Positions 552-37,810 of a stretch of DNA of 64,000 nucleotides are shown here, in pieces. The translations under genes and the position numbers were made by a program. The notes under the pieces were generated by a model. That model ran no database searches and had not been told where the DNA came from. It saw only the letters and a program-made list of their open reading frames with translations. Source of the stretch: a bacterium (GTDB lineage Bacteria > Patescibacteriota > Minisyncoccia > CAIUEV01); contig JAJXZR010000029.1 in NCBI GenBank assembly GCA_021779915.1, positions 12,495 through 76,494 on the forward strand, given 5' to 3'. The stretch's first letter is position 1. Each line of letters starts with the position of its first letter.

Positions 552-663
552 AGTTCATCAAGTTTTTCAAGTTTATCAAGTTCATAAAGTAAGAAATTTT
601 ACGAATTTTGGTAGACTATAAACTTGATAAACTTGATGAGCTTTATAACTTGATAAACTAATC
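552..663 (+). promoter_or_regulatory. CTTGATAAAC / GTTTATCAAG palindromic repeat module ending in the start-codon-proximal motif
   Basis: catcaagtttttcaagtttatcaagttcataaag ... ctataaacttgataaacttgatgagctttataacttgataaactaat-cccc-ATG. Confidence 0.5.
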
Positions 664-666
664 CCC

Positions 667-1047
667 ATGCCCAAAGAAGACAAAAAAGAAGAAAAAGAAA
701 CTAAAAAGGAGGAAAAAATTGACGAAGCTCTGCAAAAAGACATTGAAGCCAACAAGGCTGTAACTTTTCTCAGCTATCTAGGAATTCTTGCACTCATCCC
801 CTTACTTGCTAACAAGGACAGTAAATTTGCCCAATTTCATGCTAAACAAGGCTTGATTCTTGCTCTTGCAGTTATTGTGGGAGTTTGGATCTCTGGATTA
901 ATTCCAGTTCTGGGTTGGATGATTTTGTCTCCTGCCATAAGTATTGGAGGAATTGTTCTTATGATTATGGGTCTTATTAATGTTGCTAACGGGGAAATGA
1001 AAGATCTTCCGATTATTGGCGATTTCTCAAAAAAAATAAAACTATAA
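667..1047 (+). CDS. DUF4870-like small integral membrane protein
   Basis: K/E-rich N-terminus then two TM segments with an FHAKQG motif typical of DUF4870. Confidence 0.45.
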   Translation: MPKEDKKEEKETKKEEKIDEALQKDIEANKAVTFLSYLGILALIPLLANKDSKFAQFHAKQGLILALAVIVGVWISGLIPVLGWMILSPAISIGGIVLMIMGLINVANGEMKDLPIIGDFSKKIKL

Positions 1048-1063
1048 TTTCAAAATTTAAAAA

Positions 1064-1462
1064 ATGGAAATTCCGTCGAACAAAACTCTTTATGTGATTG
1101 TTGGTGTTTTGGGTGTTGTTATAGTTGTCTTACTAATTGCTTTACTTATTTTAAAAAAACCTCAAGGAAGTAGTCTTTCTGAGGTGAATAAAATAAATAA
1201 TGTTACAGATCCTAATGCCGGGAAAACGTTAGAAGAACTTACCACAGCTCCTGATAACAGTTCCAATACAAATGATGCCCCTCAAACTAATGAAGAATTA
1301 CAAAAAATGATTTCTGCTCCTCCACCCAAAAATTCATCAGGAGAGAATAAAAATAAAGTGAAGACAGAAAACATTGGTACGGAACCTCTAAACATCCCAA
1401 AAGAAGAACAGTCAATGAGCAAAGAACTTCAAGACAGCCTGACAGCGCCGAGTCGGGAATAA
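1064..1462 (+). CDS. hypothetical membrane-anchored protein with a low-complexity Ser/Asn/Pro-rich tail
   Basis: single N-terminal TM helix; low complexity; no recognisable domain. Confidence 0.3.
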   Translation: MEIPSNKTLYVIVGVLGVVIVVLLIALLILKKPQGSSLSEVNKINNVTDPNAGKTLEELTTAPDNSSNTNDAPQTNEELQKMISAPPPKNSSGENKNKVKTENIGTEPLNIPKEEQSMSKELQDSLTAPSRE

Positions 1463-1567
1463 AATAACTTGCATCATCCCGATTTGTATTCAAAACCTAT
1501 TTTTATTTTCTTTCTCTCGACTAAACTATTTATTCAGGCTAATCTTCGCTTAAAGTAAAGAAATTAA

Positions 1568-2626
1568 ATGAAAATTCCTGATTCTAAAACTATTGTTTCC
1601 ATTGATTCGAACACTATTTTTCGCACACTTTTGATCATTCTTCTGCTGTTTTTTTTGTATTATATTTCGGATGTTCTCATTATTATTTTCTTGTCTTTTA
1701 TTATTGTTTCCGCTATTGCTCCAGTGGTGGACTATTTAGAAAAATTCCGTCTTCCTCGAAGCGTAGTTACGCTTGCGATCTACGTTCTGGTTATTGGTGG
1801 GACGTTTTATATCCTCTCGCTTTTAGTTCCGGCGGTGGGGGAACAGCTGGGACAATTGGGTAACAATATTCCTCGTTACAGCCAGAGTCTGCATAATCTA
1901 GAAGAGCGAATTTTGAATTTTATGGGGAGTAAAGGAATTGCCGAGTCTCAGAGTAGCCAATTGCTGGTTAACTTGAGTAACAAACTTAACGAGGGGTGGT
2001 GGAACCTGTTTTCTCAAGCCGGATCTTTCTTGAGTGGCATAGTCAGTTTTATTGCCATTCTCTCTCTTTCCTTTTATTCTAGTATTCAAAAAAAGAATGT
2101 AGGCGAATTTTTACAAGCTTTTATTCCGGTTTCACATCGAGAATACGTGCTGACTTTGATGGATAGAATCCAGCAAAAAATTGGTTACTGGCTACTCGGG
2201 CAGATAATTCTTAATATAATTATCGGAGTGATGGTTTATATTGGACTCAGTTTGTTGGGAGTGCCCTATGCTTTGGTCTTGGCACTGCTCGCGGCAATTT
2301 TTGAGGTAGTTCCTTATGTTGGACCAATTCTTTCTTCAGTGGCAGGAATTCTTGTGGCTCTCAGTCTCGGTCCTGTGCAAGCTTTAGCTGTCCTTGTAAT
2401 GTACATTTTTGTCCAACAGCTAGAGAATCATTTAATTGTTCCTATGGTAATGAAACAAGCCGTGGGGCTCAATCCAGTCGCTGTCATTATTGCCATGCTC
2501 ATTGGGATGAAAGTTGCCGGACCTCTGGGACTGATTCTAGCTATTCCAGTTACAGCGGTAATAAGCGTGTTTTTGTCAGATTTGATTAAAGTGGAGAACA
2601 AAAGTGGGGTTGGGAGTGGGAAATAG
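1568..2626 (+). CDS. AI-2E family transporter (PerM/YhhT-like, UPF0118)
   Basis: 352 aa polytopic membrane protein with the characteristic AI-2E family architecture and C-terminal Gly-rich helices. Confidence 0.65.
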   Translation: MKIPDSKTIVSIDSNTIFRTLLIILLLFFLYYISDVLIIIFLSFIIVSAIAPVVDYLEKFRLPRSVVTLAIYVLVIGGTFYILSLLVPAVGEQLGQLGNNIPRYSQSLHNLEERILNFMGSKGIAESQSSQLLVNLSNKLNEGWWNLFSQAGSFLSGIVSFIAILSLSFYSSIQKKNVGEFLQAFIPVSHREYVLTLMDRIQQKIGYWLLGQIILNIIIGVMVYIGLSLLGVPYALVLALLAAIFEVVPYVGPILSSVAGILVALSLGPVQALAVLVMYIFVQQLENHLIVPMVMKQAVGLNPVAVIIAMLIGMKVAGPLGLILAIPVTAVISVFLSDLIKVENKSGVGSGK

Positions 2627-2845
2627 ATGTCCTTTTTATAATAATTTTCAATTTCACAATTTTATAATTTTCAAACAAACACAACTATCTATATTATATT
2701 TTCTAGAAGAAGATAGTCCGTTTTTAAAATTGAAAAATTAAGGAATTGGAAATTAGAAATTGGAAATTAGGTATACAATTTAAATCTCTAAACTTGAAAT
2801 ACAAAAAAGCAAATTTTTCTATACTCAAATTAATCAACTATTTCT

Positions 2846-4000
2846 ATGCGTACTTCCTATTCTTCTCTCAACAATTTTAAAACCTGCCCTCTTAAATATA
2901 AATACAAGGAAATTGACAAAATCAAAGGGAAACAAACCGCAATCCTCGCTTTTGGGAATTTGATGCATAAAACGCTCCGGTTTATTTACACTCCCACTGC
3001 TCATGGTTTTCCTACTAAAGAAGAAGCGATAAATTTTTTCGGACAGAATTGGAAACAGGAAATTTTAATCAAGGAAGGTGAAGAAAAAGGGTATTTTGAA
3101 GACGGGATCAAAATTTTGAGCAACTATATTGATTCCAAAGACGATGCGGAGAGAAACCAAGTGATTGCGCTTGAACACCATTTCAACATTAAAATCGGAG
3201 AACACGACTTGGAAGGATTTATTGACCGAATAGACAGAACTAAAGAAGGTTTTGAGATTATTGATTACAAAACCAGCCAAAAAATTCCCCCTGAAAAAGA
3301 AATTGAGAATGACTTGCAACTCAGTATCTATCTGCGAGCGTTCATCAATGAATGGCCTTCCCTCTTCAAAGAAGTCAAAGAAACTGACAAAATCAAACTA
3401 ACTCTCTATTTTTTGAGACACGACATAAAACTCTCGGCTACTCGAACTAAAAAAGATTTAAAAGATATCGACGAGAAAATTACCGAGCTTATTAATGCAG
3501 TTGAGGAGGCAAAAAAAAATAATAAATTTGATCCGTTCCCTTCTAATCTTTGTGGTTGGTGTGATTATCAGGAAATATGTCCTGTTTGGTCGCACAAATT
3601 CAAACCCGTTTCAAAGGAGCTTGAGGAAAAAGAAATTCAAGAAATAAGTCAAAAGTTTATCAGTCTGCGAGCCAAGAAAAAAGAAATCGAAGGGGAAATC
3701 AGAGAAGTTCAAGAAAAAATTAACAAGTATTTTACCGATACCAAATTGGAGCAGTTTTTCACGGATTTTGGAAGCATTTTAAAGTCGCCTCGCAAAACTT
3801 ACTCTTACAATCCAATCAAGATAGCTGAAATAATAAGACAAATAGGCAAAGACCCGATTTCAGTTATGAAAGTGGACTCTCGGGCTTTAACCGGTCTGAA
3901 AGCAGGATTAGAAAGAGAACAAAAAAAGATGATTGAAGAGGCGAAAGAGTTGGAGAGAGAAGGGTTTGTATTGGTGGTGAAGGGGGATAAGAAAGTTTAA
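2846..4000 (+). CDS. PD-(D/E)XK nuclease superfamily protein (RecB/Cas4-like) with C-terminal Cys cluster and K/E-rich coiled-coil tail
   Basis: RecB/Cas4-like N-terminus (CPLKYKY...), D..E.K-type core (IDRID...IIDYKTS) and CGWCDYQEICPVW cysteine motif. Confidence 0.45.
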   Translation: MRTSYSSLNNFKTCPLKYKYKEIDKIKGKQTAILAFGNLMHKTLRFIYTPTAHGFPTKEEAINFFGQNWKQEILIKEGEEKGYFEDGIKILSNYIDSKDDAERNQVIALEHHFNIKIGEHDLEGFIDRIDRTKEGFEIIDYKTSQKIPPEKEIENDLQLSIYLRAFINEWPSLFKEVKETDKIKLTLYFLRHDIKLSATRTKKDLKDIDEKITELINAVEEAKKNNKFDPFPSNLCGWCDYQEICPVWSHKFKPVSKELEEKEIQEISQKFISLRAKKKEIEGEIREVQEKINKYFTDTKLEQFFTDFGSILKSPRKTYSYNPIKIAEIIRQIGKDPISVMKVDSRALTGLKAGLEREQKKMIEEAKELEREGFVLVVKGDKKV

Positions 4001-4098
4001 AATGGAAAAATCAAAATGGAAAATTGTGGAGTCACTTTGCGACAATCAAATGTCACCTTTGGCGACACCGCAATTTTACATTTTGATTTTTCCATTTT

Positions 4099-6478: not shown

Positions 6479-6564
6479 AATATTAAGCTGTGAAGATTTA
6501 AAATGCTTTTTATAGAGTTTGGCACTGTTTTTAAACTAGCCAAATAAAAATAAAAATTTTCTCC

Positions 6565-11993: not shown

Positions 11994-13775
11994 ATGTACA
12001 TCACCAACAAACAATTAAAAAACTTTTTGCTCGAATCGGAGATTATATCGCCTGATACTTTGGATCAGGTGGAAAAAGAACTTCCAACCCAAGATGATAA
12101 ATTGGGAGAATTGTTGGTTCAAAAGGGCTTGCTTGAAGAAGAACAGCTTCGTAAAACCTATGCCTATATTTCTGGAATTCCTTTTGTAAACTTGGAGAAT
12201 CAATTTGTTGCCAAGGAAATTCTCAATATTATTCCCGAACCAATTGCGCGCAAGCACAATATAGTCGCTTTTGAAAGGGACGGAAGCAAAATCAAAGTGG
12301 CGATGCTTGATCCTCGAGATCTTCAAACGATTGATTTTATCAGAAAAAAAACTCAAAGCAAGATTCTGCCGTGCCTTACTTCAGAAAAATCAATTTCCCA
12401 TATTCTAACCTTGTACCAAAAGTCTTTGAAAGCTGAATTTGGCGATATTATTGAAGAAAGCGTTAAAATTTCTTCCGTTATGAATGAAGCAAGAGGGGTC
12501 GGTACAACTTCTGATGGGGGAGAGAAAGAAGAAGAAACACTAAAGAAAACTGCTGAAGAATTACCCGTTATAAAGATTATAGACGTACTCCTCAAGCATG
12601 CCATTTTGCAACAGGCCAGCGATATCCACATTGAACCCATCGAAAAAGAGGTTATTGTAAGATACAGGATTGATGGCATTTTGCACGACGTAATGTTTCT
12701 TCCTAGGGAGATATTGTCCGCAGTTATCGCCAGAATAAAAGTACTTTCCGATTTGAAGCTCGATGAGCACAGACTCCCTCAAGACGGAAGATTTAAACTG
12801 GAGACTCAAGATTATAAATTTTCTTTCCGAGTTTCGATTCTTCCTATCATCGATGGAGAAAAGATTGTTATTCGTCTTCTCAATGAAACGAGTAAAGGAT
12901 TAACTTTAGAGCAATTGGGCTTTCGAGGGAAAGCACTCGAGGTGATCCAAAAGAACATTCATCGTCCGCACGGAATGCTCTTGGTTACCGGACCGACCGG
13001 ATCAGGCAAAACCACCACCCTCTATACCATGATGGATATTTTGAATACCAACCAAGTGAATATTAGCACTGTAGAAGACCCAATTGAATACCGAATGCAA
13101 AGAATCAATCAAACTCAGGTTAATTCAAAAGTGGGTCTTACGTTTGCAGTTGGGCTTAGGTCTCTTTTACGCCAAGACCCGGACATCATTATGGTTGGAG
13201 AAATCAGAGACGAAGAGACGATGCATATTGCGATTAATGCTGCTATGACTGGGCATTTAGTGCTTTCAACCTTGCATACCAATTCTGCCGCTGCTACAAT
13301 GCCACGGCTCATGGACATGGGAGCTGAGCCGTTTCTTTTAGCCTCCACTTTGAACGTTGCCATTGCCCAAAGATTGGTGCGAAAAATCTGTCCCAATTGC
13401 CAGGAGGATTATTTAATGGGACAAAACGATGTTGAACTTTTGAAGAAAAAAGTTGATGCGGATAAGATTTTTGAAATTTTAAAGCAAGAGAAGATTATTC
13501 CTGAAACAGCTAGGGGTTTTGAGGAAGTGGCTTTTGCCAGAGGCAAAGGTTGCGTAAGATGCAACAACACCGGATACAAGGGAAGACTGGGCATTTATGA
13601 GGTGATCGAGGTTGATGACGATCTTCGAGCACTTATTTCCGAAAGAAAAGATTCTGATACAATCAACGCCAAAGCAGTGGAAAATGGCACGATCACTATG
13701 CTTCAAGATGGATTTATCAAAGCAATCCAAAAAGTTACTACAATCGAGGAAATTTTAAGAGTTACACAAGAATAA
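11994..13775 (+). CDS. pilB: type IV pilus assembly / type II secretion ATPase (GspE/PilB family)
   Basis: T2SSE_N domain, Walker A GPTGSGKTTTLY, Walker B DPDIIMVGEIRD, His box GHLVLSTLHTN, tetracysteine CPNC...CVRC. Confidence 0.85.
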   Translation: MYITNKQLKNFLLESEIISPDTLDQVEKELPTQDDKLGELLVQKGLLEEEQLRKTYAYISGIPFVNLENQFVAKEILNIIPEPIARKHNIVAFERDGSKIKVAMLDPRDLQTIDFIRKKTQSKILPCLTSEKSISHILTLYQKSLKAEFGDIIEESVKISSVMNEARGVGTTSDGGEKEEETLKKTAEELPVIKIIDVLLKHAILQQASDIHIEPIEKEVIVRYRIDGILHDVMFLPREILSAVIARIKVLSDLKLDEHRLPQDGRFKLETQDYKFSFRVSILPIIDGEKIVIRLLNETSKGLTLEQLGFRGKALEVIQKNIHRPHGMLLVTGPTGSGKTTTLYTMMDILNTNQVNISTVEDPIEYRMQRINQTQVNSKVGLTFAVGLRSLLRQDPDIIMVGEIRDEETMHIAINAAMTGHLVLSTLHTNSAAATMPRLMDMGAEPFLLASTLNVAIAQRLVRKICPNCQEDYLMGQNDVELLKKKVDADKIFEILKQEKIIPETARGFEEVAFARGKGCVRCNNTGYKGRLGIYEVIEVDDDLRALISERKDSDTINAKAVENGTITMLQDGFIKAIQKVTTIEEILRVTQE

Positions 13776-13784
13776 AAAATGTTT

Positions 13785-14004
13785 GTGTCATTCCCAGCGT
13801 GTCGACCGAGAATCCAGGAGGGTAGAAAATTATTCTAATTGACCTAATTATACTAATTATTCTAAACAAAATCCAAAAACCAATTTCTAAAATTTATTTT
13901 TATTGTTTGGTACTTGGTGCTTTTTTAGTATAATTAGTATAATTAGGTCAATTAGAATAATTAATGAGATTAAACTGAATCTCGTATTAAGCCCGAGATT
14001 ACAC
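13785..14004. repeat. MITE-like palindromic element, hairpin-TIR family, long subtype (H1)
   Basis: left terminus GTGTCATTCCCAGCGTGTCGACCGAGAATCCAGG, degenerate right terminus, internal ctaattat/ttggtgctttttt inverted module shared with the copies at 36851, 55222 and 63194. Confidence 0.65.
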
Positions 14005-14067: not shown

Positions 14068-15171
14068 ATGCAAATTCAGTCTCTTAAGACGTGGTTATCC
14101 GGCCACCAGTGGCTTCTCTGGCTCACGGTGGGAATGGCTGTAGTTATCAGTCTCAATACTCTTTACAGCATCTTTTATGGGACACCTCAGATCAAGATAT
14201 TCTATCACCAAATCATTTATGTTTTATTAGGATTTGTAATGGCTTATCTTATTGGTAGATATGATTACCGAATTTTTCGGCGTCATATTTTGGTGTTTTT
14301 TTTGGGAGCTTTGCTACTTTTGATTTTGGTTCTCGTTAGAGGCTTGAAAATCAATGGTACAACGGGTTGGCTAGATTTTAAAGTTTTTAGTTTTCAACCG
14401 GTTGAAGTGGCAAAGGTCGTAGTAATTTTAGCTTTAGCAACCTTTTTCGCTAAATATCACAATGTTTTGTATTCTTGGAAAGTTTTAGCTTTTTCCTTTT
14501 TAATTCCGTTGCCTTTTGCCACACTTACTTTATTACAACCAGACTTGGGATCAACTCTAGCTTTGATGGGTATTTGGGGAGGATTCATTTTTGCTTCCTC
14601 AGCCAGAAAAACTCAAAAAATAACCCTTATCGCTGTTACAGTGTCGATCGCTCTCTTTGGTTGGTTCTTTCTACTTAAGGATTATCAAAGAGATCGGCTT
14701 AGTACTTTTGTTAATCCGGAAAGAGACGCCCTTGGAACGGGTTACAACACTCTTCAGGCGGTAACTGCTATTGGTTCAGGAGGAGTGAAAGGCAAAGGAC
14801 TGGGTTTTGGCTCTCAAAGTCAACTCCATTTTCTTCCAGAAGCTCACAGCGACTTTATTTTTGCCGTTTTTGCAGAGGAAACCGGTTGGATTGGAGTGAT
14901 TATTTTTTTGGTCGCTTCCTTGCTTTTTTATTTTTCCATAATTAATATAGCTAGATTTAGCAAAGATAATTTTGGATATTTTTTAGTAGTGGGGATTTTC
15001 TGGTTTTTTCTTATTCATTTTTTTGTTAACGTTGGGATGAATCTGGGATTATTACCGATAGTTGGCCTTCCTCTCCCCTTCATAAGCGCTGGAGGGACAA
15101 ACCTCTTTGTTTCTTTTATCCTCGTGGGACTAGTACAAAGTGTTGGCAGACTAAGCCTTAAGAACAATTAA
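14068..15171 (+). CDS. FtsW/RodA/SpoVE (SEDS) family peptidoglycan glycosyltransferase
   Basis: 367 aa, about 10 TM segments, SEDS-family conserved blocks. Confidence 0.8.
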   Translation: MQIQSLKTWLSGHQWLLWLTVGMAVVISLNTLYSIFYGTPQIKIFYHQIIYVLLGFVMAYLIGRYDYRIFRRHILVFFLGALLLLILVLVRGLKINGTTGWLDFKVFSFQPVEVAKVVVILALATFFAKYHNVLYSWKVLAFSFLIPLPFATLTLLQPDLGSTLALMGIWGGFIFASSARKTQKITLIAVTVSIALFGWFFLLKDYQRDRLSTFVNPERDALGTGYNTLQAVTAIGSGGVKGKGLGFGSQSQLHFLPEAHSDFIFAVFAEETGWIGVIIFLVASLLFYFSIINIARFSKDNFGYFLVVGIFWFFLIHFFVNVGMNLGLLPIVGLPLPFISAGGTNLFVSFILVGLVQSVGRLSLKNN

Positions 15172-15208
15172 AAATTTATTAAGAATCTCTGTAAGAATAT
15201 TTTTTTGT

Positions 15209-15444
15209 GTGTCATCCTTGCGAAAGCGAGGATCCAGAGAAGTAAGACTGAAAAATTCCAAGAAACAAGAAGCAAGCTCCAAACAAATTAAAAATCACAA
15301 ATTCCAAACGAAAAAAGTTTTGAGTTTCGAATTTCGAATTTGGAAGATTGTATCTTGTTTGCCTGCCTACCGGTAGGTGGGTAATTTGTTTCTTGTCTCT
15401 TGGAATTTTACTTTCATGGATCCTCGCTTTCGCAAGGATGACAC
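15209..15444. repeat. MITE-like palindromic element, hairpin-TIR family with internal ccaagaaacaa/cctaccggtagg arms (H2)
   Basis: termini GTGTCATCCTTGCGAAAGCGAGGATCCAG ... GGATCCTCGCTTTCGCAAGGATGACAC are a perfect inverted repeat. Confidence 0.75.
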
Positions 15445-15456
15445 GGTGGAGTATCT

Positions 15457-15488
15457 TCTTGATAAACTCTATAACTTGATAAACTAAT
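15457..15488 (+). promoter_or_regulatory. CTTGATAAAC direct-repeat motif abutting the yebC start codon
   Basis: CTTGATAAACTCTATAACTTGATAAACTAAT then 4 nt then ATG; the same about 22-nt sequence precedes the ATGs at 667 and (rc) 37768. Confidence 0.5.
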
Positions 15489-15492
15489 TTAT

Positions 15493-16218
15493 ATGTCCGG
15501 TCATAGCCATTGGTCTGGTATAAAACGCAAAAAAGCGCTGGTTGATTCTAAAAGAGCCCAAAAATTTACTAAGTTGGGTAGGGCTATTACGATTGCCTCT
15601 CGAGAAGGAGGAGAAAATCCCGATTTCAACCCGAATTTACGCTTGGCTATCGAGAAAGCCAAAGAGTTTAATATGCCCAAAGATAAAATTCTGAATTCTA
15701 TCAAGAAAGGATCTTCTAAAAACGCTGAAGACCAACTGGAAGAAGTAACTTACGAAGCCCTGGGGCCGGAAGGTATAATGCTTGTTATTGAAACAATTAC
15801 AGACAATAGAAACCGTACAGTCTCAGAGATCAGGCACATTCTAGACGAACATGGCGGAAAAATGGCCGATGGAGGGGTGGGATGGAATTTTAGAAGAAGA
15901 GGGTTAATAACCTTTCAGGTTTTAGAGGAGCAAAAAGAAGAATTTGAATTAAAAGCTATTGAATGCTCGGTGGAAGACCTTATGGAGGAAGAAAAGGGTG
16001 CTGTTTCAGTTATATGCAGTCTTGAAGATATTGAAAAAATCAAAGAGAAGCTATCTGATTTTCCCATTATTGAAAATATTGTTGCTTATCTTTCTAACAA
16101 TCCGGTTGCTATTTCTGACAAAGTTCGAAAAAAATATGATATATTGTTAGACGATTTAGAGAATCAATCGGATGTTCAGGAAATCTGGGATAATGTCGAG
16201 AAAATAACGGTTATTTGA
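15493..16218 (+). CDS. yebC: YebC/PmpR family DNA-binding regulatory protein
   Basis: 241 aa; matches the YebC family along its full length. Confidence 0.85.
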   Translation: MSGHSHWSGIKRKKALVDSKRAQKFTKLGRAITIASREGGENPDFNPNLRLAIEKAKEFNMPKDKILNSIKKGSSKNAEDQLEEVTYEALGPEGIMLVIETITDNRNRTVSEIRHILDEHGGKMADGGVGWNFRRRGLITFQVLEEQKEEFELKAIECSVEDLMEEEKGAVSVICSLEDIEKIKEKLSDFPIIENIVAYLSNNPVAISDKVRKKYDILLDDLENQSDVQEIWDNVEKITVI

Positions 16219-16404
16219 TGAATAGTAGCGAATATAGGGCATATTATTCTATTTTATCGGTAAGACCCTTTATTTGACATATTATTAAGGTATGGTATTC
16301 CTTCAAAGTAAGGTATAAAGCGAGAAAAAGATATTTTGGTTTACTTAAAGAAAAAGAAATAATAATTTTGATTTTACTTTTAAAAAGAAAGGGGGTGAAA
16401 TTAA

Positions 16405-16785: not shown

Positions 16786-16880
16786 TATTAGTTCATAAAG
16801 TTCATAAAAAACATTAGAGGAAAATATTCCTTTTAACTTTACAAACTTTATAAACTTTCTAACTTTAAGAACTAGTTTGT
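16786..16880. repeat. degenerate copy of the TTCATAAAG/AACTTTATAAAC repeat module upstream of the GT4 gene
   Basis: gttcataaagttcataaa...aactttataaactttctaactttaag immediately before the ATG at 16881. Confidence 0.4.
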
Positions 16881-18038: not shown

Positions 18039-18152
18039 AATGACGAATGACGAATATCGAATATCGAATGACGAACCAATAATAGAAGATATTTTTTGCC
18101 ATTTTATATTTGGATTTGATTCGTCATTCGTCATTTGGAATTTGTCATTTTA
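18039..18152. repeat. TGACGAA-heptad palindromic element (T1) between convergent stop codons
   Basis: atgacgaatgacgaatatcgaatatcgaatgacgaa ... ttcgtcattcgtcatttggaatttgtcatt. Confidence 0.7.
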
Positions 18153-20754: not shown

Positions 20755-21005
20755 GTGTCATTCTCGGCGTGTCGACCGGGAATCCAGGAGGATAGTATTG
20801 GTCTAACAAAATTCCAAATTCCAAGAAACAAATTACCCACCTACCGGTAGGCAGGCAAACAAGATACGATTTTCCAAATTAAAAATTAAAAACATTATTT
20901 TTTTATTTTAAATTTGTGATTTTGAATTTGTTTGGAACTTGTTTCTTGCTTCTTGGAATTTTATGGTCTTACTTACATAGATCCTCGCTTTCGCAAGGAT
21001 GACAC
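20755..21005. repeat. MITE-like palindromic element, hairpin-TIR family with internal arms (H3), inverted relative to H2
   Basis: GTGTCATTCTCGGCGTGTCGACCGGGAATCCAGG ... GGATCCTCGCTTTCGCAAGGATGACAC; internal ttacccacctaccggtaggcaggcaaacaag. Confidence 0.75.
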
Positions 21006-21044: not shown

Positions 21045-22391
21045 TTGCAAAAATTCAAACAAATTCTATTTTTTCTAACTATCTTATCTCTTCCCATTGA
21101 GCTGGCTTTTGTTAAAATTGGTGGTAGGGATATTAAATTCTGGTTTATTTTTGCCGTTTTGGGGGGTGTTGTTGTTTTGGCGGATTGGTGGAAGAAGGGA
21201 ATAAAAGAAATAACCAGTTTGAAAAGTTTTTATCTGGGAATTGCTACGATATTTTTTTCTTGCATTGCCCTGGTCGATTCGCCTGTTAAATCTTTCTCGA
21301 TCCAGCAACTGGTAATTCTTATCTCGCTGATTACGCTGGCTATGTTTGTTGAAAAATATTCCAAGAGATGCAAAAAAAAAATTCCCTCAGGACTTGCCAT
21401 TGGCATGATCTTAAGCTCAATTCTGGCTATTTGGCAAAACATTGCTTTTAATCTAGGAAATCAAAGTCTTGAGATTATGGCGGCAAGACCCAATGCGCTT
21501 TTTCCGGAACCCGATTGGCTAGGGTTTTATTTGTCTTTAGGGCTGGTGTTCTTCGTTGTTTCAACAAGAAATAAACAGTTACCGGAATTTTTAAAAAACA
21601 AATTTTCTTTGAGCATTTTTTGGCTGTTAAATATTACGGCACTTATCATTACAGTCGCTAGAGCGAGTTGGTTGGCTTTTATTTTGGAAGCTGGCGTCAC
21701 ATCCTTGCTATTAGCCACTTCTCTTTACCTTAGAAAAAAAGATTTAAAAGAAGCTCTAACTGCCTTTTTAAAAAAAGGGGGGGCTTTTGTTGCTCTGATT
21801 TTAATTTCTATTGCCATTATCCAAATCTTCCAATTAACGCGCTTCAATCTTTTTGATCGAATGAGAAGTATTTTTTTTAAACAACATATTGTCACTATGG
21901 CTTATAATCCGATTACGAAAGAGAGCTTAAAAATAAATTTGGAAGAAAAAGAGACTTACATTCAAAAAGGATTTGAAATTAAAGATGCTTATGTGCCCGA
22001 TGAAAATGTTATAAGTCGAGAAGATAAGGCAGTAAGTGCGTGGGACATTATCAAGAAGCATCCGATCCTAGGAAACGGATTGGGAATTATTCTCATTGAA
22101 ACCAACTATCAACACAACGCCAATAATCTCTTTCTTGAATGGTGGGCAAGCGCCGGTATTGGAGGGTTGATGGCAATTACCGGAACCCTTGTTTATTTTA
22201 TTGTCAAAGGATTGACTTTTATTAAAAATGAGAAGCGAAAATCCATTCTGCTAATTGCCGGAACCTTGGGATTTATCGCACTCAATCTCTTTAACGCTTC
22301 GATACTCCTCGCTTTTGCATGGTTTTTTCTAGGATATCTTTTTTCGCTTACCCACGTGTCATCCCGGCCTCCGAGCCGGGATCCAGGATGA
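21045..22391 (+). CDS. O-antigen ligase/polymerase-like integral membrane protein
   Basis: polytopic protein with a Wzy_C-like loop (TVARASWLAF) and a periplasmic insert; the C-terminal 11 aa and the stop codon lie inside repeat H5. Confidence 0.4.
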   Translation: MQKFKQILFFLTILSLPIELAFVKIGGRDIKFWFIFAVLGGVVVLADWWKKGIKEITSLKSFYLGIATIFFSCIALVDSPVKSFSIQQLVILISLITLAMFVEKYSKRCKKKIPSGLAIGMILSSILAIWQNIAFNLGNQSLEIMAARPNALFPEPDWLGFYLSLGLVFFVVSTRNKQLPEFLKNKFSLSIFWLLNITALIITVARASWLAFILEAGVTSLLLATSLYLRKKDLKEALTAFLKKGGAFVALILISIAIIQIFQLTRFNLFDRMRSIFFKQHIVTMAYNPITKESLKINLEEKETYIQKGFEIKDAYVPDENVISREDKAVSAWDIIKKHPILGNGLGIILIETNYQHNANNLFLEWWASAGIGGLMAITGTLVYFIVKGLTFIKNEKRKSILLIAGTLGFIALNLFNASILLAFAWFFLGYLFSLTHVSSRPPSRDPG

Positions 22392-23263: not shown

Positions 23264-23392
23264 AAAATGACGAATGACAAATGTCGAATGACGAATTAAT
23301 GGCAAAATCCAAATATCAAAAAATTTTGTCATTTGGTATTTGAAATTTATCGTTTTATTAGAAATTAGGTGAATTAGGTTAATTAGAAATTT
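23264..23392. repeat. TGACGAA-heptad element (T2) with an ATTAGAAATTAGGTGAATTAG right terminus
   Basis: aatgacgaatgacaaatgtcgaatgacgaatt ... ttttgtcatttgg ... ttagaaattaggtgaattaggttaattagaa. Confidence 0.6.
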
Positions 23393-30796: not shown

Positions 30797-30914
30797 ATAA
30801 ATGACGAAGTTCGAATGACGAATGACGAATTGTGGTGTTCACTATCCTCACAATCAATCGTCGCCTTCGGTGACACCTTAATTTGTCATTCGTCATTCGA
30901 ACTTCGTCATTTAT
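30797..30914. repeat. TGACGAA-heptad palindromic element (T3) between convergent stop codons
   Basis: aatgacgaagttcgaatgacgaatgacgaatt ... aatttgtcattcgtcattcgaacttcgtcattt; nearly perfect inverted halves. Confidence 0.75.
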
Positions 30915-32879: not shown

Positions 32880-32906
32880 AAAACGCTCAGCTGAGCGTTT
32901 TTTTAA
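32880..32906. terminator. perfectly palindromic hairpin plus T-run downstream of tRNA-Tyr, potentially bidirectional
   Basis: AAAAACGCTCAGCTGAGCGTTTTTTT. Confidence 0.6.
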
Positions 32907-32916
32907 AATTTTTTTG

Positions 32917-32999
32917 TCCGAGGAGAGGGATTCGAACCCCCGTAGGGAAGACCCGACAGATTTACAGTCTGTTGCAATTGACCACTCTGCCACCCTCGG
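32917..32999 (-). tRNA. tRNA-Tyr (anticodon GTA), class II with long variable arm
   Basis: rc CCGAGGGTGGCAGAGTGGTCAATTGCA-ACAGA-CTGTAAA-TCTGT-CGGGTCTTCCCTACG-GGGGTTCGAATCCC...CTCGGA; anticodon loop ctGTAaa. Confidence 0.8.
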
Positions 33000-33019
33000 T
33001 AATTAACTTTTTAAATCCT

Positions 33020-33190
33020 ACACTAGTTCATCAAGTTTATCAAGTTACGCGAATTAGTTTAGAAGGTTTAGAAAGTTTTGAAAGTTTAGAAAGACAGAAT
33101 GGTGCTTTTTTATGAAAAATATTATAACCAAAAACTCTCTGACTTTCTAAACTTTCCTAACCTTCTAAACTTTCTAAACTAGCTTTCCTG
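33020..33190. repeat. composite palindromic repeat: CTTGATAAAC units upstream of tRNA-Tyr plus a GTTTAGAAAG palindrome
   Basis: rc of 33024-33049 reads taacttgataaacttgatgaactag; gtttagaaaggttt.../...aaactttctaaac inverted halves. Confidence 0.5.
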
Positions 33191-33268
33191 ATTTTCATTT
33201 TATCTTTTTTTTATAATTATTTTATCTCCACTCATTTATAAGGAAGGTATAATTATTAATTTTTCAAA

Positions 33269-33742
33269 ATGACTTTGAAAAAAAATATATCCTCCTTTTT
33301 AACTTTTTCTTTAATTTGGAAAATTATTTTTCCTCTTTTTTGTATTTCATCCGGGTTCTTGTCCGGATTTTTTTATAAACAGTATCTCGGAAAAGAAGAG
33401 TGCCTCAATCTTGCATTTTCCAACAATCAAGAAGCGATGAGTCAATCTCAAATAGAAGAAATCAGTCAACTTCTCAATCAAGGAAATGAGACGGGACCTC
33501 TGTCTCAAGAAAATTTAAACGCGAATCAAAATAATTCAAACGTGAATGCTAACCCACTCAAAGATACTCCTCAAGCCAATAATACTGGAACAGGCAAATT
33601 TGTTGGAAGCCAAAAAAGCGACAAATTTTATCCTATCGCCTGCCACTTCGCCAAAAGAATCAAGGAAGAAAACAAAGTCTGGTTTGCAAGTGTAGAAGAA
33701 GGCGAAAAAGCAGGAAGGAAGTTTGTGGAATGTAATAATTAA
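33269..33742 (+). CDS. secreted protein with a C-terminal Ada-type metal-binding-like domain
   Basis: signal/TM N-terminus; C-terminal F.V......YPIACHF......EN.VWFAS.EEGEKAGRKFVEC resembles the Ada_Zn_binding pattern. Confidence 0.3.
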   Translation: MTLKKNISSFLTFSLIWKIIFPLFCISSGFLSGFFYKQYLGKEECLNLAFSNNQEAMSQSQIEEISQLLNQGNETGPLSQENLNANQNNSNVNANPLKDTPQANNTGTGKFVGSQKSDKFYPIACHFAKRIKEENKVWFASVEEGEKAGRKFVECNN

Positions 33743-33780
33743 AAATTAAAAGTTAGAAATGCAAAAGAACAATTCAAATT
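33741..33780. repeat. short copy of the GCAAAAGAACA module (F3)
   Basis: aaaagttagaaatgcaaaagaacaattcaaatt. Confidence 0.3.
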
Positions 33781-33789
33781 ATTTCTTTC

Positions 33790-33961
33790 GTGTCACCCTA
33801 ACTCCACCTGTCATTCCCGCGAAGGCGGGAATCCAGGAAGATTTTATTAAATTAATAGAATGTTATTTTAGTTATTTTCTTAACTATAGAACCCAAACAA
33901 TCATTCTTTTAGTCTAATAAAGTATTAGTTTACTGGATTCCCGCCTTCGCGGGAATGACAC
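33790..33961. repeat. MITE-like element, hairpin-TIR family, short subtype (H7)
   Basis: GTGTCA...TGTCATTCCCGCGAAGGCGGGAATCCAGG ... CTGGATTCCCGCCTTCGCGGGAATGACAC; compensatory hairpin variant. Confidence 0.75.
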
Positions 33962-33997
33962 GGACGAATTTATAACTTTTAATTTTTAACTAAAGAG

Positions 33998-36547
33998 ATG
34001 TCCACAAAACCATTTCTACCAATCCTAATATTCCTTCTTTTTCCTATTTTCGCCTTCGCCAGCCCCTCTGAAGAAACCATCAGTTCGAATCTTTCCATTA
34101 TCCAAAACACCATCTGGAGCGGAACAAAAATCATTAATGGAGCGAAAATTACGGTTGAAAACACAGCTACCCTCACCCTTGAGCCAGGAACAACGGTTAT
34201 TGGTTTAAATGGCGCGTCTATTTATATTAAAGGAAGGTTTATCGCGATTGGAGAAGAAAACCATAAGATCAGATTTACCTCTGACAAAGATAGGCAACAA
34301 AATTTTACTTTAACCTATTCTCTCAGTTCCATAGCGGGAAGCGAGGTTGAGATGAGAAATTTTATCTTGGAGGACGGAGGAGGAAACCAAGATCTAGCCT
34401 CTCTTCCAGCCCTTACCCTTAAGGGAAAAGGAACCCTTTCCGATTGTATTATCAGAAGAAACAGAACCACGGGGGTTCGTTTTTGGGACAGTGTTGATAA
34501 TGAATCAATAGAAAATTGCGAAATTTACGAAAACGAGAATTTAGCCATTGAAAACAAAACCACTAATCTCTTGAAGGCCGAGAATAATTGGTGGGGATCG
34601 AAAGACGGCCCCAGTTATTTTGTCAGCGCTCCCCGTGCCTACATCTGGGGCAATATTGATTTTGATCCTTGGCAACAAAAAGGTCCTATTCCTATTATTC
34701 TGGTACCGGGATTTGGGGGAAGCTTCAGTTTTAAGCTATTTAGTAATTCGGCAAAAAACGACTGGTGGATGACGCCTCTAGGGACTGGTTCTTACCGCTA
34801 TTTTGCAAAAGCTCTAGCTTCCAAAAATTACACTTTGGGGCAAGATTATTTCTGGGCCTTTTACGATTGGAGAAAGCTTAATGAAGAAAGTGCCCAAAAC
34901 TATTTAAAAAAAACTATTGAGGAAGCCAAACAAAAAAGTGACCACAACGAAGTTAATCTTGTTGCTCACAGCATGGGAGGCCTTTTAGCCAGAAGCTATA
35001 TTCAAAGCGATAATTTTGAGGATGATGTTGATCGTTTGGTAACTGCCGGAACTCCTCACCTGGGGTCTAGTGAAACTTATTCTCTTTGGGAAGGAGGAGA
35101 GCTCCTCGGTGCTAAAAAAATATTACTTCCTTACCTCTGGTACCTGGAAATTCTAAATCGAAATTATTCCAACATTGACACGCTTCGAAATGAATTTCCT
35201 TCTCTTGCCGAAATGCTTCCCACTTATGATTATCTCTACCAAAAAGATTCAGGAGAAACTATTTCTTACGCTTCTCAAAAATATCAAAATTCGTTTTTAG
35301 AAAGCATAAATTCCGATCTTAAAAACCTCAAAAGAAAAGTTTGGCTGGGAGTTGTTGCAGGAACAGGAGAAAAGACTTTGGAAAAAATCCCTGTAAAAGC
35401 TTGCACAGAAAATTCCAATATTTTTGAAGATGGAGTTCCGGATCCTCTTAACTCAATTCCTGATTCACTTTTCGGTGACGGAACCGTTACTCAAAAAAGC
35501 GCTACTCTAAATAACCAATTAACTAACAATTCAATTACTATCCCCAGTTCCCATGGAGAACTTTTTCAAAAAGGTCAGAAAAATTTGTTTGACGAATTAA
35601 ATATTCGCCCTTCCACTTTTTCCCTTGCCGATATTTTAGATGACTTTTTATTCAGCTCCTCCGGGCCGATTGACATTTCAATTGAAAACGAAGCCGGAAA
35701 AATTTTGAACACAGACGCAAAAGAAATTAATGAAAGCGAGTACGACGAGGAAGAAATTGAAGGAAAAAAGCTAGTTTTTGCCAGTTTTCCAATCAATTAC
35801 TCGACCTCTTTGCAAAAGCAGAGTCTAAAAATTACTGTTTTGGGAAAGGACGAAGGAACAGCCAAGCTGGCTTTTTGGCATTTTTCTTCTAATGAAGATT
35901 TTGATAAAGTTGAAAAAGAAATCGGCACAGACGAAAATTCTAAAGTCATTTACACCGTTTCTCTGGAAAAAGGCTTGGATGGAAAACCAAAAATAAATAT
36001 TACTGATACTGATTCCTTAAGCTTTATTAAGACAAGAATACCTCTTCCTAACGACAATTATTTGAATTGGCAATATCTGCTTCCGGAAGCATACATCTGG
36101 AGCGGGGAAGACGACGAAAAAATCGAAAGTTCGAAGGTAAGCTATTCTCTTGATCAAAAGGACGTTAGTGGAAGCCTAGATCTTTCTTCTTTGCCACTTG
36201 GCCACCATGAGATAAAAGTCCGAGGAAGTTGGTTAAAAAAAGGTGTCTCTCAAAATGACGAAAAAGAAATTCCCTTCGTTATCAGCACTTCCTTAAAAAG
36301 TTTTTCTACTCTCCTAGACAGATTTTACAAAGAAGGAAAAATCAACAGCTGGAAAGACAGAAGCAATCTAACTAATTTATCTTCTTTAGCTTATCAAGAT
36401 TTATCGGAAGGAGATCTGAATGGGGCAAAAAACAAGATAAGAGAAATAAAAAACACTCTTTTAGAAAAAGAAGATTTGTTTAAGGACAAAAAAGACAAGG
36501 AAATAATGAATAATTCTATTGCTTATTTGGAAAATAATCCAAATTAA
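33998..36547 (+). CDS. secreted protein: N-terminal right-handed beta-helix (pectin-lyase-like) domain plus alpha/beta-hydrolase lipase/esterase domain
   Basis: signal peptide; NxxxGxxI beta-helix repeats; lipase nucleophile elbow VNLVAHSMGGLLARSY (GxSxG). Confidence 0.6.
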   Translation: MSTKPFLPILIFLLFPIFAFASPSEETISSNLSIIQNTIWSGTKIINGAKITVENTATLTLEPGTTVIGLNGASIYIKGRFIAIGEENHKIRFTSDKDRQQNFTLTYSLSSIAGSEVEMRNFILEDGGGNQDLASLPALTLKGKGTLSDCIIRRNRTTGVRFWDSVDNESIENCEIYENENLAIENKTTNLLKAENNWWGSKDGPSYFVSAPRAYIWGNIDFDPWQQKGPIPIILVPGFGGSFSFKLFSNSAKNDWWMTPLGTGSYRYFAKALASKNYTLGQDYFWAFYDWRKLNEESAQNYLKKTIEEAKQKSDHNEVNLVAHSMGGLLARSYIQSDNFEDDVDRLVTAGTPHLGSSETYSLWEGGELLGAKKILLPYLWYLEILNRNYSNIDTLRNEFPSLAEMLPTYDYLYQKDSGETISYASQKYQNSFLESINSDLKNLKRKVWLGVVAGTGEKTLEKIPVKACTENSNIFEDGVPDPLNSIPDSLFGDGTVTQKSATLNNQLTNNSITIPSSHGELFQKGQKNLFDELNIRPSTFSLADILDDFLFSSSGPIDISIENEAGKILNTDAKEINESEYDEEEIEGKKLVFASFPINYSTSLQKQSLKITVLGKDEGTAKLAFWHFSSNEDFDKVEKEIGTDENSKVIYTVSLEKGLDGKPKINITDTDSLSFIKTRIPLPNDNYLNWQYLLPEAYIWSGEDDEKIESSKVSYSLDQKDVSGSLDLSSLPLGHHEIKVRGSWLKKGVSQNDEKEIPFVISTSLKSFSTLLDRFYKEGKINSWKDRSNLTNLSSLAYQDLSEGDLNGAKNKIREIKNTLLEKEDLFKDKKDKEIMNNSIAYLENNPN

Positions 36548-36792
36548 GGTACTTTGTCCACACCTCCTTCGTTCCAGGGATGGCATCTAGAAATTCTTTT
36601 GACAGTCAACCAGGAGCCTTTTGCTAAACCATATTTTTTAAGCGCCTGAACGGAATATTCCGAACAAGTGGGATGAAAAATACAAACCCTAAACCCCATA
36701 CTTTTCCCCCAGAAACTTTGGTCAGGAGAAAGGGTTTTTTGATAGATGCGGATGAGGAAAATGAGGGGGAGGGTAGTAATTTTTTGGAACAT
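36544..36792 (-). CDS. yidD: membrane protein insertion efficiency factor YidD
   Basis: 82 aa; conserved CxxxPTCSxY and CHPW motifs. Confidence 0.8.
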   Translation of the reverse strand: MFQKITTLPLIFLIRIYQKTLSPDQSFWGKSMGFRVCIFHPTCSEYSVQALKKYGLAKGSWLTVKRISRCHPWNEGGVDKVP

Positions 36793-36850
36793 AGGGTTTT
36801 GAGTTTAAAATAGCAGAATTTACAAATTTCAATTTCTTATTATATTTTGT

Positions 36851-37095
36851 GTGTCATCCCGGGCTTGACCCGGGATCCAAGAGAATAGAAAATTGCTCTA
36901 ATTAACCTAATTATACCCACCGCCTAAGGCGGGATCCCGCTTTGCGGTGATAATTGACCTAAAAAAGCACCAAACAATAAAAAATAAATCTTGAAAATTG
37001 GTTCTTGGCATTTTATTTAGAACAATTAGATCAATTAGGGTAATTAGAATAATTGGCGAGTCTAACTAGATCCCGGGTCAAGCCCGGGATGACAC
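36851..37095. repeat. MITE-like element, hairpin-TIR family, long subtype (H8), inverted relative to H1
   Basis: GTGTCATCCCGGGCTTGACCCGGGATCCAAG ... CTAGATCCCGGGTCAAGCCCGGGATGACAC; internal aattagggtaattagaataatt module. Confidence 0.75.
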
Positions 37096-37108
37096 TTGGT
37101 TACAAATT

Positions 37109-37768
37109 TTACTTGTCCATTTGTTTCCTCCTCCATTTCTCAATCTTCTTCGGGTCCCCGCACAAAAGCACACTCGGTACCTTCCAGCCTTTATAAACTT
37201 CGGGTCTAGTATATTGCGGGTACTCCGTTTCATTAGTATTATAAGATTCCTCTTTCAAAGATTCTTCATTCCCTAGCACTCCAGGGATTAATCTGGTGAC
37301 GGAATCAAGAATGGTGGCCGCTCCCAGTTCTCCCCCGCTTAGAATATACTTTCCCATAGATATTTCTTCATCAGCTATATGATTTATCACCCTTTCGTCG
37401 ACCCCTTCATATCTGCCACAAACAAAAATTATTTGCTTATATTTTTTAGATAATTCAAGGGACTTCTTTTGGTTAAAAATCTTTCCTTTGGCGGCAAGTA
37501 AAATTATTCTAATTTCATTTCTTTTATATGGACTTTTTTTCAAAATTTCCTCAACACATTTTTCAACCGGCTCAACTTTCATGAGCATTCCCACCCCTCC
37601 TCCATACGGGACATCATCTGTCGTCCTATGTTTATCCTTGGCATAATCCCGAAGGTCATGCACAAAAATTTCAATTAGCTTCTTTGCTTTAGCCCTTTTA
37701 ATTTGGGCTTCAGCAAAATAGGAATCGAGAATGTGAGGGAATATGGTGATTATGTCAAATCGCAACAT
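37109..37768 (-). CDS. trmD: tRNA (guanine37-N1)-methyltransferase
   Basis: 219 aa SPOUT-fold protein with TrmD motifs (DIITIFP, YGGG.GM). Confidence 0.9.
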   Translation of the reverse strand: MLRFDIITIFPHILDSYFAEAQIKRAKAKKLIEIFVHDLRDYAKDKHRTTDDVPYGGGVGMLMKVEPVEKCVEEILKKSPYKRNEIRIILLAAKGKIFNQKKSLELSKKYKQIIFVCGRYEGVDERVINHIADEEISMGKYILSGGELGAATILDSVTRLIPGVLGNEESLKEESYNTNETEYPQYTRPEVYKGWKVPSVLLCGDPKKIEKWRRKQMDK

Positions 37769-37810
37769 TAGTTTATCAAGTTTATAAAGTTATAAAGTTT
37801 ATCAAGTATT
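37769..37810 (-). promoter_or_regulatory. CTTGATAAAC direct-repeat motif abutting the trmD start codon
   Basis: rc: CTTGATAAACTTTATAACTTTATAAACTTGATAAACTA-ATG. Confidence 0.5.

Follow-up and report, generated by a model that had tools for sequence, protein, structure and literature searches.

A palindromic intergenic element with arms of nine-nucleotide repeats in Patescibacteria and its possible role as a source of leaderless promoters

Correia elements (NEMIS or CREE) of Neisseria have 26-bp inverted repeats, duplicate a TA target and are confined to one genus, and the Foldback and Galileo transposons of Drosophila, for which a transposase partner is known, measure kilobases and are not linked to start codons. 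In Actinobacteria and Deinococcus, leaderless genes are served by extended −10 (TGn) promoters with TG at −15/−14 and TAnnnT at −12 to −7; they lack a Shine-Dalgarno sequence, and their transcription begins 6–8 nt downstream, at a Y-R-Y triplet coinciding with the ATG. Many genes of candidate-phyla-radiation bacteria have no ribosome-binding site and, to our knowledge, the initiation of transcription and translation is essentially unstudied in most of these organisms. BrickBuilt, a MITE (miniature inverted-repeat transposable element) found in Porphyromonas gingivalis (Bacteroidota), is a many-copy intergenic repeat that includes a minisatellite, and its capability as a bidirectional promoter has been shown experimentally (PMC4596501). 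Repetitive extragenic palindromic (REP) sequences, BIMEs and REPINs are high-copy extragenic palindromes, which often form inverted doublets and lie mostly between co-directional or convergent genes; REPs are thought to form RNA hairpins and to be mobilised in trans (PMC3733652). Here, we describe an intergenic element found in a 64,000-nt stretch of a patescibacterial genome (contig JAJXZR010000029.1 of assembly GCA_021779915.1, positions 12,495 to 76,494), which we call the window. The element is marked by the decamer CTTGATAAAC, and it is well supported that this decamer is the unit of arrays that form the arms of a palindromic, outward-pointing structure placed between the stop codon of one gene and the start codon of the next.

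Nine-nucleotide repeat arrays ahead of start codons

The decamer is present eight times in the window, at 571–580 (minus strand), at 623, 649, 15458 and 15475 (plus strand), and at 33035, 37771 and 37797 (minus strand). Dinucleotide shuffles of the window contained 0.21 copies on average, and none of 100 shuffles reached eight. A check for copies inside genes, which the initial annotation had proposed, found none: all eight are intergenic. The decamer represents the unit of a 9-nt tandem repeat (with CTTGATAAA and CTTGATGAA as its 9-mers, plus an 8-mer, CTTTATAA) that is organized in arrays of about four copies. Tandem Repeats Finder places such arrays at 618–659, 15458–15485 and 37770–37807, and one of opposite polarity at 552–590, with periods of 9 and 8–17. 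The initial annotation, which had noticed a longer motif next to three start codons, overlooked these 9-nt units together with a fifth array that occupies the opposite strand at 553–589 and analogous arrays in many other spacers.

The three genes in question encode a DUF4870 protein (PF09685), YebC (PF01709/PF20772) and TrmD (PF01746), as had been proposed, and their contact with the motif is genuine. The 19-mer TATAACTTGATAAACTAAT is exact at 644–662 and 15470–15488, and its copy at trmD (37785–37767, minus strand) carries three upstream mismatches and reads ATAAAC where the other two have TATAAC. The start of the DUF4870 gene reads ...CTAAT CCCC ATG with the ATG at 667, that of yebC reads ...CTAAT TTAT ATG with the ATG at 15493, and that of trmD (37768, minus strand) reads ...CTAATG, where the motif overlaps the start codon. 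The additional upstream copies that had been reported are indeed present, at a distance of 16 nt for the DUF4870 gene, 7 nt for yebC and 16 nt for trmD.

No GGAGG-like Shine-Dalgarno sequence is found 5–10 nt before the start codons at 667, 15493 and 37768, in agreement with the initial annotation, and such sequences are nearly absent from gene starts across the window. The exception is the HU gene, which has both a Shine-Dalgarno sequence, AAAGGGGGTGA, and a conserved TTGACA-type promoter. As this gene still uses a Shine-Dalgarno sequence, the anti-Shine-Dalgarno system of this organism is functional, and the lack of such a sequence at the DUF4870 gene, yebC and trmD is thus informative. The layout of the HU gene (TTGACA, 16 nt, TGgTATTC, some 100 nt of leader and, as a strong Shine-Dalgarno sequence, GGGGGTGA or GGAGGTGA) is kept here at 16290–16404 and in three relatives (L121, 6700–6945; L122, 4635–4855; L123, 6708–6865), and contrasts with that of nearly all other genes. 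Pairing of the repeat unit with conserved 16S rRNA segments was considered and set aside, as it extends over 4–7 bp at most (the comparison included no 16S gene from this genome).

Gene starts of the window display a signal of another kind. In a tabulation of 42 of the 44 starts, AACT(A) shows a preferred place, 4–8 nt before the start codon, and nine of the 44 genes have AACTA 4–7 nt ahead of the ATG. The signal is also present where CTTGATAAA arrays are not recognisable, namely at genes 11994, 33998, 45051, 47418 and 57200, which suggests that at array-free starts AACT(A) is a degenerate remnant of the arm ends of the CTTGATAAA family.

The palindromic design is readily seen between the LemA and DUF4870 genes, where arrays 552–590 (period 9, 4.3 copies) and 623–658 form an inverted pair that fills the spacer from 6 nt past the stop codon to 8 nt before the ATG. 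The left, stop-facing arm (553–589, minus strand) starts 6 nt after the LemA stop codon (544–546) and is composed of four units, CTTTATGAA CTTGATAAA CTTGAAAAA CTTGATGAA C. The right, start-facing arm (623–658, plus strand) has a 9+9+8+9 composition, CTTGATAAA CTTGATGAG CTTTATAA CTTGATAAA C, and the same order of units recurs at six loci of other Patescibacteria assemblies. The start-facing arm of yebC (15458–15484, plus strand; CTTGATAAA CTCTATAA CTTGATAAA C) is matched by a single reverse-type unit, TTTATTAAG (15175–15183, plus strand), located 3 nt after the ftsW stop codon (15169–15171). Between the two lies a nested inner palindrome (15205–15450) flanked by the REP-like hairpins GTGTCATCCTTGCGAAAGCGAGGATCC and GGATCCTCGCTTTCGCAAGGATGACAC. 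The arm that precedes trmD (37771–37806, minus strand) reads CTTGATAAA CTTTATAA CTTTATAAA CTTGATAAA C and is followed by TA and the ATG. The divergent spacer between trmD and the gene at 37993 also contains a near-perfect palindrome of about 100 nt (37826–37929, AAAATATTTTGTTTCAAATTGGGAAACTGTGTTTTAAAAACTA...), which is enclosed by outer units of the CTTGATAAA family.

The gene-facing ends as candidate promoters

Further copies of the element were collected by a genome scan, which took one genome per species and searched for two CTTGATAAAC copies within 20 nt, and by a metagenome scan for GTTTATCAAG, a gap of 5–35 nt and CTTGATAAAC, which added about 30 multi-unit modules. Four loci lie within the 79 kb covered for this genome, and other assemblies contain hundreds. 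The arms obey a strict polarity. Among inverted pairs that the search pattern had not selected, 34 point outward, with reverse units (GTTTATCAAG...), a spacer and forward units (...CTTGATAAAC) in this order, and one points inward; a separate count gave 19 to 0. An ATG-initiated open reading frame (ORF) follows on the same strand within 45 nt of 70 of the 222 arrays, with a sharp peak 6–9 nt after the last unit (33 of the 70), and in 41 of 68 cases the last AACT is separated from the ATG by 5, 6 or 7 nt. A similar number of arrays, 67 of 222, abut the stop codon of an ORF on the opposite strand, at distances spread over 0–28 nt. The terminal hexamer TAAACT is found at 23 of 33 start-facing ends (70%), where it is preceded by TG, versus 24 of 67 stop-facing ends (36%; Fisher p = 0.0026). 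At the peak distance the start codon is ATG in 31 of 33 cases, and the base at position −1 is T in 88% and C in 12% of them and never a purine (33 of 33 pyrimidine), where controls have a pyrimidine in 55% and neighbouring linker positions in 50–70%.

The genes downstream of modules in Patescibacteria are often those of translation and transcription, operon-internal ones included: L22, S18 (twice), EF-P, L33, L35, L20, PheT, S7, S3, L6, L18, S13, S21, EF-Ts, RpoA, NusG and, again, YebC. In metagenome contig SXGR01268968.1 (780–10568; hereafter L186) all 17 intercistronic gaps of the S10–spc cluster, 63–154 nt in length, are repeat-armed palindromes. Six or more unit families are represented among them; T occupies −1 in 17 of 17 junctions, and none displays a Shine-Dalgarno sequence. 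Overall, ORFs on either side of a module are co-directional in 14 cases, convergent in two and divergent in two, which is about the genomic background.

The initial annotation had entertained the idea that the motif is an operator with iteron-like repeats, bound by a common regulator. Direct repeats within the arrays, inverted sets about a short spacer, the enrichment of translation functions downstream and the presence of a module before yebC in two unrelated lineages (the window and L179) would all suit a DNA-binding regulator of translation-related genes. However, arms are located at gene 3′ ends about as often as at starts (67 versus 70), in one instance at the 3′ end of an opposite-strand tRNA; at least six unit families hold equivalent positions within the single L186 operon; with a period of 9 bp, consecutive sites face different sides of the DNA helix; and the closest relatives lack the element at yebC. 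An operator of this kind is therefore scarcely credible. Among known binding sites, DnaA boxes match at 6 of 9 positions only, and sites for Fur or IHF have the wrong period or positions.

The spacing, the TAAACT bias, the pyrimidine at −1 and the preference for ATG are, in combination, what an extended −10 promoter that initiates at the ATG predicts. Judged on sequence, the promoter core matches the definition of this class. TGaTAAACT, present at 651–659 and at 15477–15485, contains a TG and a −10 hexamer in which positions −11 and −7 are A and T, and the genes at 667 and 15493 start 7 nt after the −10 with C or T at −1. The proposed core of the DUF4870 gene (651–669, plus strand) comprises TG at 651–652, TAAACT at 654–659, the 7-nt linker AATCCCC and the C|ATG junction, and that of yebC (15477–15495, plus strand) comprises TG at 15477–15478, TAAACT at 15480–15485, the 7-nt linker AATTTAT and the T|ATG junction. 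A pyrimidine at −1 followed by ATG makes up a Y−1 R+1 Y+2 start element, which in a cross-species study co-localises with the transcription start when its centre lies 7–8 bp past the −10 (PMC12641261). That such a start signal exists in these organisms is indicated by a gene at 12500 of the module-rich contig L186, which displays a textbook TGTGGTATAAT, 7 nt and an ATG.

We propose, as a tentative model that we consider quite possible without calling it probable, that the element is a palindromic, repetitive and probably mobile cassette whose outward promoter ends fire leaderless mRNA. The gene-facing end of an arm would be a compact extended −10 promoter with TG at −15/−14 and TAAACT at −12 to −7, followed by an A/T-rich discriminator of 5–7 nt and a pyrimidine at −1, with +1 falling on the A of the ATG. 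RNA polymerase initiating there would make a leaderless mRNA, for which no Shine-Dalgarno sequence is needed. Within the window, this scheme would apply to the DUF4870 gene and yebC. By virtue of its symmetry the element would have a promoter end in each direction, so that it could settle in a short spacer or an operon junction, probably by insertion, and leave the gene downstream unsilenced. This absence of a polar effect would explain its presence in essential operons as well as the tight spacing to starts and the loose spacing to stops. Ends that face the 3′ end of a gene would have largely lost the TAAACT form, antisense firing being selected against, and the arms, by pairing, may also form a hairpin with which incoming transcription is insulated against or weakly terminated. 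The earlier proposal that the motif creates short-leader or leaderless transcripts is thus retained in a revised form at 667 and 15493 and abandoned at trmD. The −10 element it had named, TATAAC, lacks the essential final T, and TGaTAAACT of the last unit fits better.

Several observations weigh against this model, all promoter claims of which are drawn from sequence geometry. At trmD, 1 nt rather than 5–7 separates TAAACT from the ATG, and A occupies −1. Directly upstream of the trmD array there is a 10/12 match to a sigma-70-type promoter (37835–37808, minus strand; TTGAAA, 16 nt, TAGAAT). As the leaderless geometry does not apply and a promoter match precedes the array, the latter is most likely a transcribed leader of 33 nt behind a conventional promoter. 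Weaker −10-like sites are also found ahead of the other arrays, TATCTT at 15453–15458 and, in the inter-arm spacer upstream of the DUF4870 gene, TGgTAGACT (609–617, plus strand), a second site that reads as an extended −10, although it received no score in the sigma-70 scan. If TGgTAGACT were a used promoter, the right arm would become a 5′ leader, and by the same logic arrays could be leaders everywhere. A sigma-70 scan found no pair of −35 and −10 elements (16–18 nt spacing, at least 9/12) inside 623–659 or 15458–15485, and the 15 nt that separate TTGATA or TTGATG from TAAACT are poor for a −35; canonical pairs adjoin arrays only before trmD and before tRNA-Tyr. Other unit families in L186 have T at −1 but lack a −10-like hexamer at the right distance, which implies that the class needs another or an additional mechanism. 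TAnnnT located 5–7 nt before starts is not enriched across the window (10 genes versus about 7 expected). The primary-sigma consensus of Bacteroidales is different, yet arrays abut ATGs there too; the Bacteroidetes motif TAnnTTTG was looked for in the arrays and is absent. Concerning mobility, the window revealed no transposase. At the flanks of 50 modules the sequence is ...A|GTT and AAC|T..., which continues the palindrome, and a separate direct repeat is not evident. No insertion polymorphism was detected within the species among the available contigs, as the copies of this genome (metagenome-assembled genome (MAG) GCA_027428295.1, ENA and Logan contigs) are all 99.97–100% identical.

The array upstream of tRNA-Tyr appears to work in yet another manner. 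Two units, CTTGATAAA CTTGATGAA C (33044–33026, minus strand), end 26 nt before the 5′ end of the tRNA (32999). The sequence here is compatible with the earlier assignment of TTGATA as a −35, since TTGATA (33043–33038) is followed after 17 nt by TAGGAT (33020–33015), which ends 15 nt before the tRNA, and the whole of 33015–33044 (minus strand) includes a 9/12 sigma-70 match. The unit would thus supply a −35-like element. Next to it, in the divergent region between tRNA-Tyr and the gene at 33269, an inverted array pair of a sister unit, CTTTCTAAA, with four copies per arm (33056–33180) flanks a perfect TGgTTATAAT (33130–33121, minus strand). Searched at gathering thresholds, Rfam matched three tRNAs in the window and nothing else.

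The predicted folds of the spacers bring into play an alternative at the level of RNA, the foremost competitor of the cassette model, which we regard as possible if rather unlikely. The inverted arms would form a long A/U-rich hairpin in mRNA and keep the AUG, the linker with its terminal U and the last unit out of the stem as single strand, which could result in Shine-Dalgarno-independent initiation, in translational coupling across the base of the hairpin, or in endonucleolytic processing just before the AUG, the last in the manner of the RNase III sites of the phage T7 early region or of mitochondrial tRNA punctuation. The fold of 547–669 conforms to this arrangement, with the left arm (553–589) paired to units 1–3 of the right arm (620–646) and the last unit, the linker and the AUG (647–669) unpaired. 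In the yebC region, unit 15475–15483 pairs with TTTATTAAG (15175–15183) and closes a 300-nt nested palindrome. At each of the DUF4870 gene, yebC and trmD the focal arm constitutes the 3′ side of an outer stem around nested palindromes, and the folds of intergenic regions are far more stable than those of shuffled sequences (z-scores from −3 to −16). Several of the facts given above also fit this alternative: a good promoter precedes the trmD array, the Bacteroidales arrays that abut ATGs are hard to read as promoters, the architecture is common to all unit families, T is found at −1 in all 17 L186 junctions whatever their sequence, and modules lie between cistrons that are co-transcribed in other bacteria (S10–spc, str and infC-rpmI-rplT-pheST). 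On the other hand, hairpin function predicts neither the outward polarity of 34 to 1 nor the enrichment of TAAACT at start-facing ends only, partnerless single arms occur, for example at four loci, and the arms at 553–658 are just about 75% complementary. The relative stability of sense and antisense hairpins is inconsistent, as the sense hairpin is the more stable one in about 19 of 28 modules of the CTTGATAAA family (19 to 9) and is not favoured over all families (3 to 13 in L186, 6 to 10 in the window). A mini-ORF, TTG ATA AAC TAA, coupled to the ATG was likewise considered and rejected, as the stop and start codons overlap at trmD only.

A degenerate member of the family is located before the glycosyltransferase gene (16790–16873, plus strand). 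It consists of GTTCATAAAGTTCATAAA, a spacer and the units CTTTACAAA CTTTATAAA CTTTCTAA CTTTAAGAA CTAGTTTGT, and ends at the ATG (16881). The leader of this gene contains TAACTTTAAGAA (16855–16866), which is identical over 12 bases to the core of the ‘epsilon’ translational enhancer that pET vectors have from gene 10 of phage T7, possibly a coincidence.

Dispersal among genomes and spacers

Among the matches listed by the genome scan, the 9-mer family (CTTGATAAA, CTTGACAAA, CTTTACAAA, CTTTATAA, CTTGATGAA) occurs in many Patescibacteria and also in MAGs of Ignavibacteria and of Bacteroidales, with several contigs for each; the lineages comprise Shapiro-, Roizman-, Woese-, Falkow-, Doudna-, Moran- and Saccharibacteria, Ignavibacteria and Bacteroidales. 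The 22-bp iterons of Lactobacillus plasmids and coding LDK-type repeats, which the same scan returned, were excluded, since they contain the 10-mer fortuitously. An origin as a phage feature was also dismissed, as 35 matches on viral contigs are almost all coding repeats or unrelated iterons.

The nearest YebC homologues are 54–61% identical, and three relatives keep the gene order T2SSE-ftsW-yebC-HU-glycosyltransferase with ftsW-yebC gaps of 32, 101 and 9 nt, versus 321 nt here. The gaps of these distant relatives contain neither arrays nor REP-like hairpins, and the yebC module is thus lineage-specific; this comparison is one that the initial annotation had called for.

Within the genome, CTTGATAAAC is not the only unit organized in this fashion. 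Tandem Repeats Finder detects the same design with other units at more than 10 spacers of the window, often nested with REP-like hairpins: the AATGACG family at 18039, 23266, 30800, 58149 and 59866, the AATTATTCT family at 13828, 55264 and 63237, the CTTTCTAAA family at 33056/33142, and the TTGAAAA family at 45757/45941. It is well supported that the CTTGATAAAC element is one family in a wider class of repeat-armed palindromes that occupy most spacers of this genome and, in some relatives, all junctions of the ribosomal-protein operon.

The AATGACG/CGTCATT heptamer arrays (18039–18150, 23266–23350, 30800–30911, 58149–58260 and 59866–59970) are inverted, have four or five copies per arm and start 1–5 nt after stop codons. 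Two gaps between convergent genes are taken up exactly by such arrays, and the one at 30800–30911 is an almost perfect palindrome in which even a variant unit is found at the mirrored position. Such arrays are what one would expect of intrinsic bidirectional terminators built from repeats: convergent gaps are filled exactly (18039–18150 and 30800–30911), hairpins begin 0–8 nt after many stop codons, and linkers are T-rich. Nevertheless, the modules were not flagged by a terminator scan, their stems are long, A/T-rich and imperfect, T-richness peaks at −1 and not beside the stem, modules are found inside ribosomal-protein operons and in divergent regions, and canonical GC-rich terminators exist elsewhere in the genome (16702–16736, 9962–9991). 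We consider a terminator function very improbable.

A composite palindrome of 200 nt is present in three homologous copies that are about 80–85% identical (13776–13990, 55230–55440 and 63190–63400) and in a half copy (37017–37095). It opens and closes with a REP-like hairpin and has in between four AATTATTCT-type units, a conserved core and the mirrored units. Because variant units are mirrored between its arms, inverted duplication rather than independent slippage gave rise to the arms. A 201-nt segment upstream of yebC (15209–15409) has an inverted copy with 85% identity at 20808–21005, upstream of the Wzy_C gene at 21045. The REP-like hairpin itself, (C/T)GTGTCATCC, a variable stem with compensatory changes and GGATCCAGG, has about 24 copies in the window, which form inverted doublets 30–240 nt apart (13786, 15210/15436, 20756/20997, 22357/22386, 27704/27836, 33809/33953, 36852/37087, 44761/44891, 45838/45920, 47218, 55425, 56960/57045 and 63195/63411). 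Similar hairpins (CTGTCATTCCGGCGCAGGCCGGAATCCAG) adjoin CTTGATAAA arrays at two loci of an Ignavibacteriae MAG.

This dispersal could mean that the element is selfish DNA of a foldback-type MITE or REP-like nature with no role in expression, which abuts start and stop codons only by way of insertion into the very short spacers that a compact genome has, and leaves expression to read-through. The composite palindromes dispersed at about 80–85% identity, the 85% identical copies 15209–15409 and 20808–21005, the nested architecture, the absence from orthologous sites of relatives, the same sequences in distant phyla, and module contexts (14/2/2) that match the genomic background are all in line with this idea. 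We find it improbable nonetheless. Neutral insertion does not predict a fixed distance of 6–9 nt to starts versus loose distances to stops, and the selfish-DNA explanation predicts neither a pyrimidine at −1 in 33 of 33 cases, nor the difference in TAAACT content between start- and stop-facing ends, nor the saturation of essential ribosomal-protein operons; moreover, neither a transposase nor a target-site duplication was identified.

Of the three readings offered by the initial annotation, that of a mobile module comes closest to the whole picture, in which the element is dispersed, nested, palindromic, shared across phyla and lineage-specific at each locus. Its mobility is inferred from dispersal, nesting, lineage specificity and cross-phylum sharing, and of the traits of MITEs, inverted arms and many dispersed copies are both present. 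Some 5 kb to the right of the window, two assemblies of this species cease to agree (L160, 15066–18491, versus L159, 18134–20319): the L160 variant has genes for an IS1595-type transposase, for Fic/RhuM and for DUF4325, and L159 has different small ORFs.

Returning to the cassette with outward leaderless promoters, we extend it, as a doubtful though attractive possibility, to a portable ‘gene punctuation cassette’ that has spread across Patescibacteria and Bacteroidota/Ignavibacteria and replaced junctions of the Shine-Dalgarno type, those between ribosomal-protein cistrons included; in some lineages, classical operons would in the course of this have been converted to series of separately initiated leaderless genes. 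If this is true, a module promoter with its start at the ATG would account for gene expression without Shine-Dalgarno sequences in these genomes and provide gene callers with a usable start-site signal. A repeat family would then be rewriting operon architecture, that of the most conserved operons included, and a 35-bp portable expression element would be available for direct testing. The 9-mer family that is common to Patescibacteria and Bacteroidota/Ignavibacteria would reflect either horizontal transfer of a small non-coding element or convergence on the constraints of the polymerase.

Comparison with described systems

A full-text literature search for the repeat sequences and for related topics (leaderless genes, intergenic repeats, foldback elements) returned no description of the element. 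The combination of repeat-built arms, strict outward polarity, start-locked promoter geometry, spread across phyla and location at ribosomal-operon junctions appears to be undescribed.

The inverted termini of Foldback and Galileo are, like the arms described here, internally built of short tandem repeats of variable copy number. The −10 of leaderless genes in Actinobacteria and Deinococcus is a unique sequence in each gene, whereas here it would be the last unit of a repeated, palindromic module shared across phyla. REPs are single hairpins of 20–40 bp that carry a GTAG or CGTC tag and have no fixed relation to start codons (PMC3733652), unlike the CTTGATAAA arms, in which no tagged single hairpin of this kind is found. 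The separate family of the window that consists of GTGTCATCC, a stem and GGATCC, on the other hand, is REP-like and forms doublets.

The element would work most like Correia elements and the BrickBuilt MITE. With Correia elements it shares small size, a palindromic structure, proximity to genes, many copies, −10/−35-like ends, possible outward promoters and hairpin transcripts; it differs in having arms that are arrays of a 9-mer, and Correia elements are not positioned to start RNA at the ATG. In BrickBuilt, units of 23 nt form a single direct array that is flanked by a leader and a tail segment, and the inverted repeats at the termini are small (PMC4596501). It is located 49–591 nt from genes of one species (PMC4596501), whereas the element described here abuts start codons and is found across phyla.

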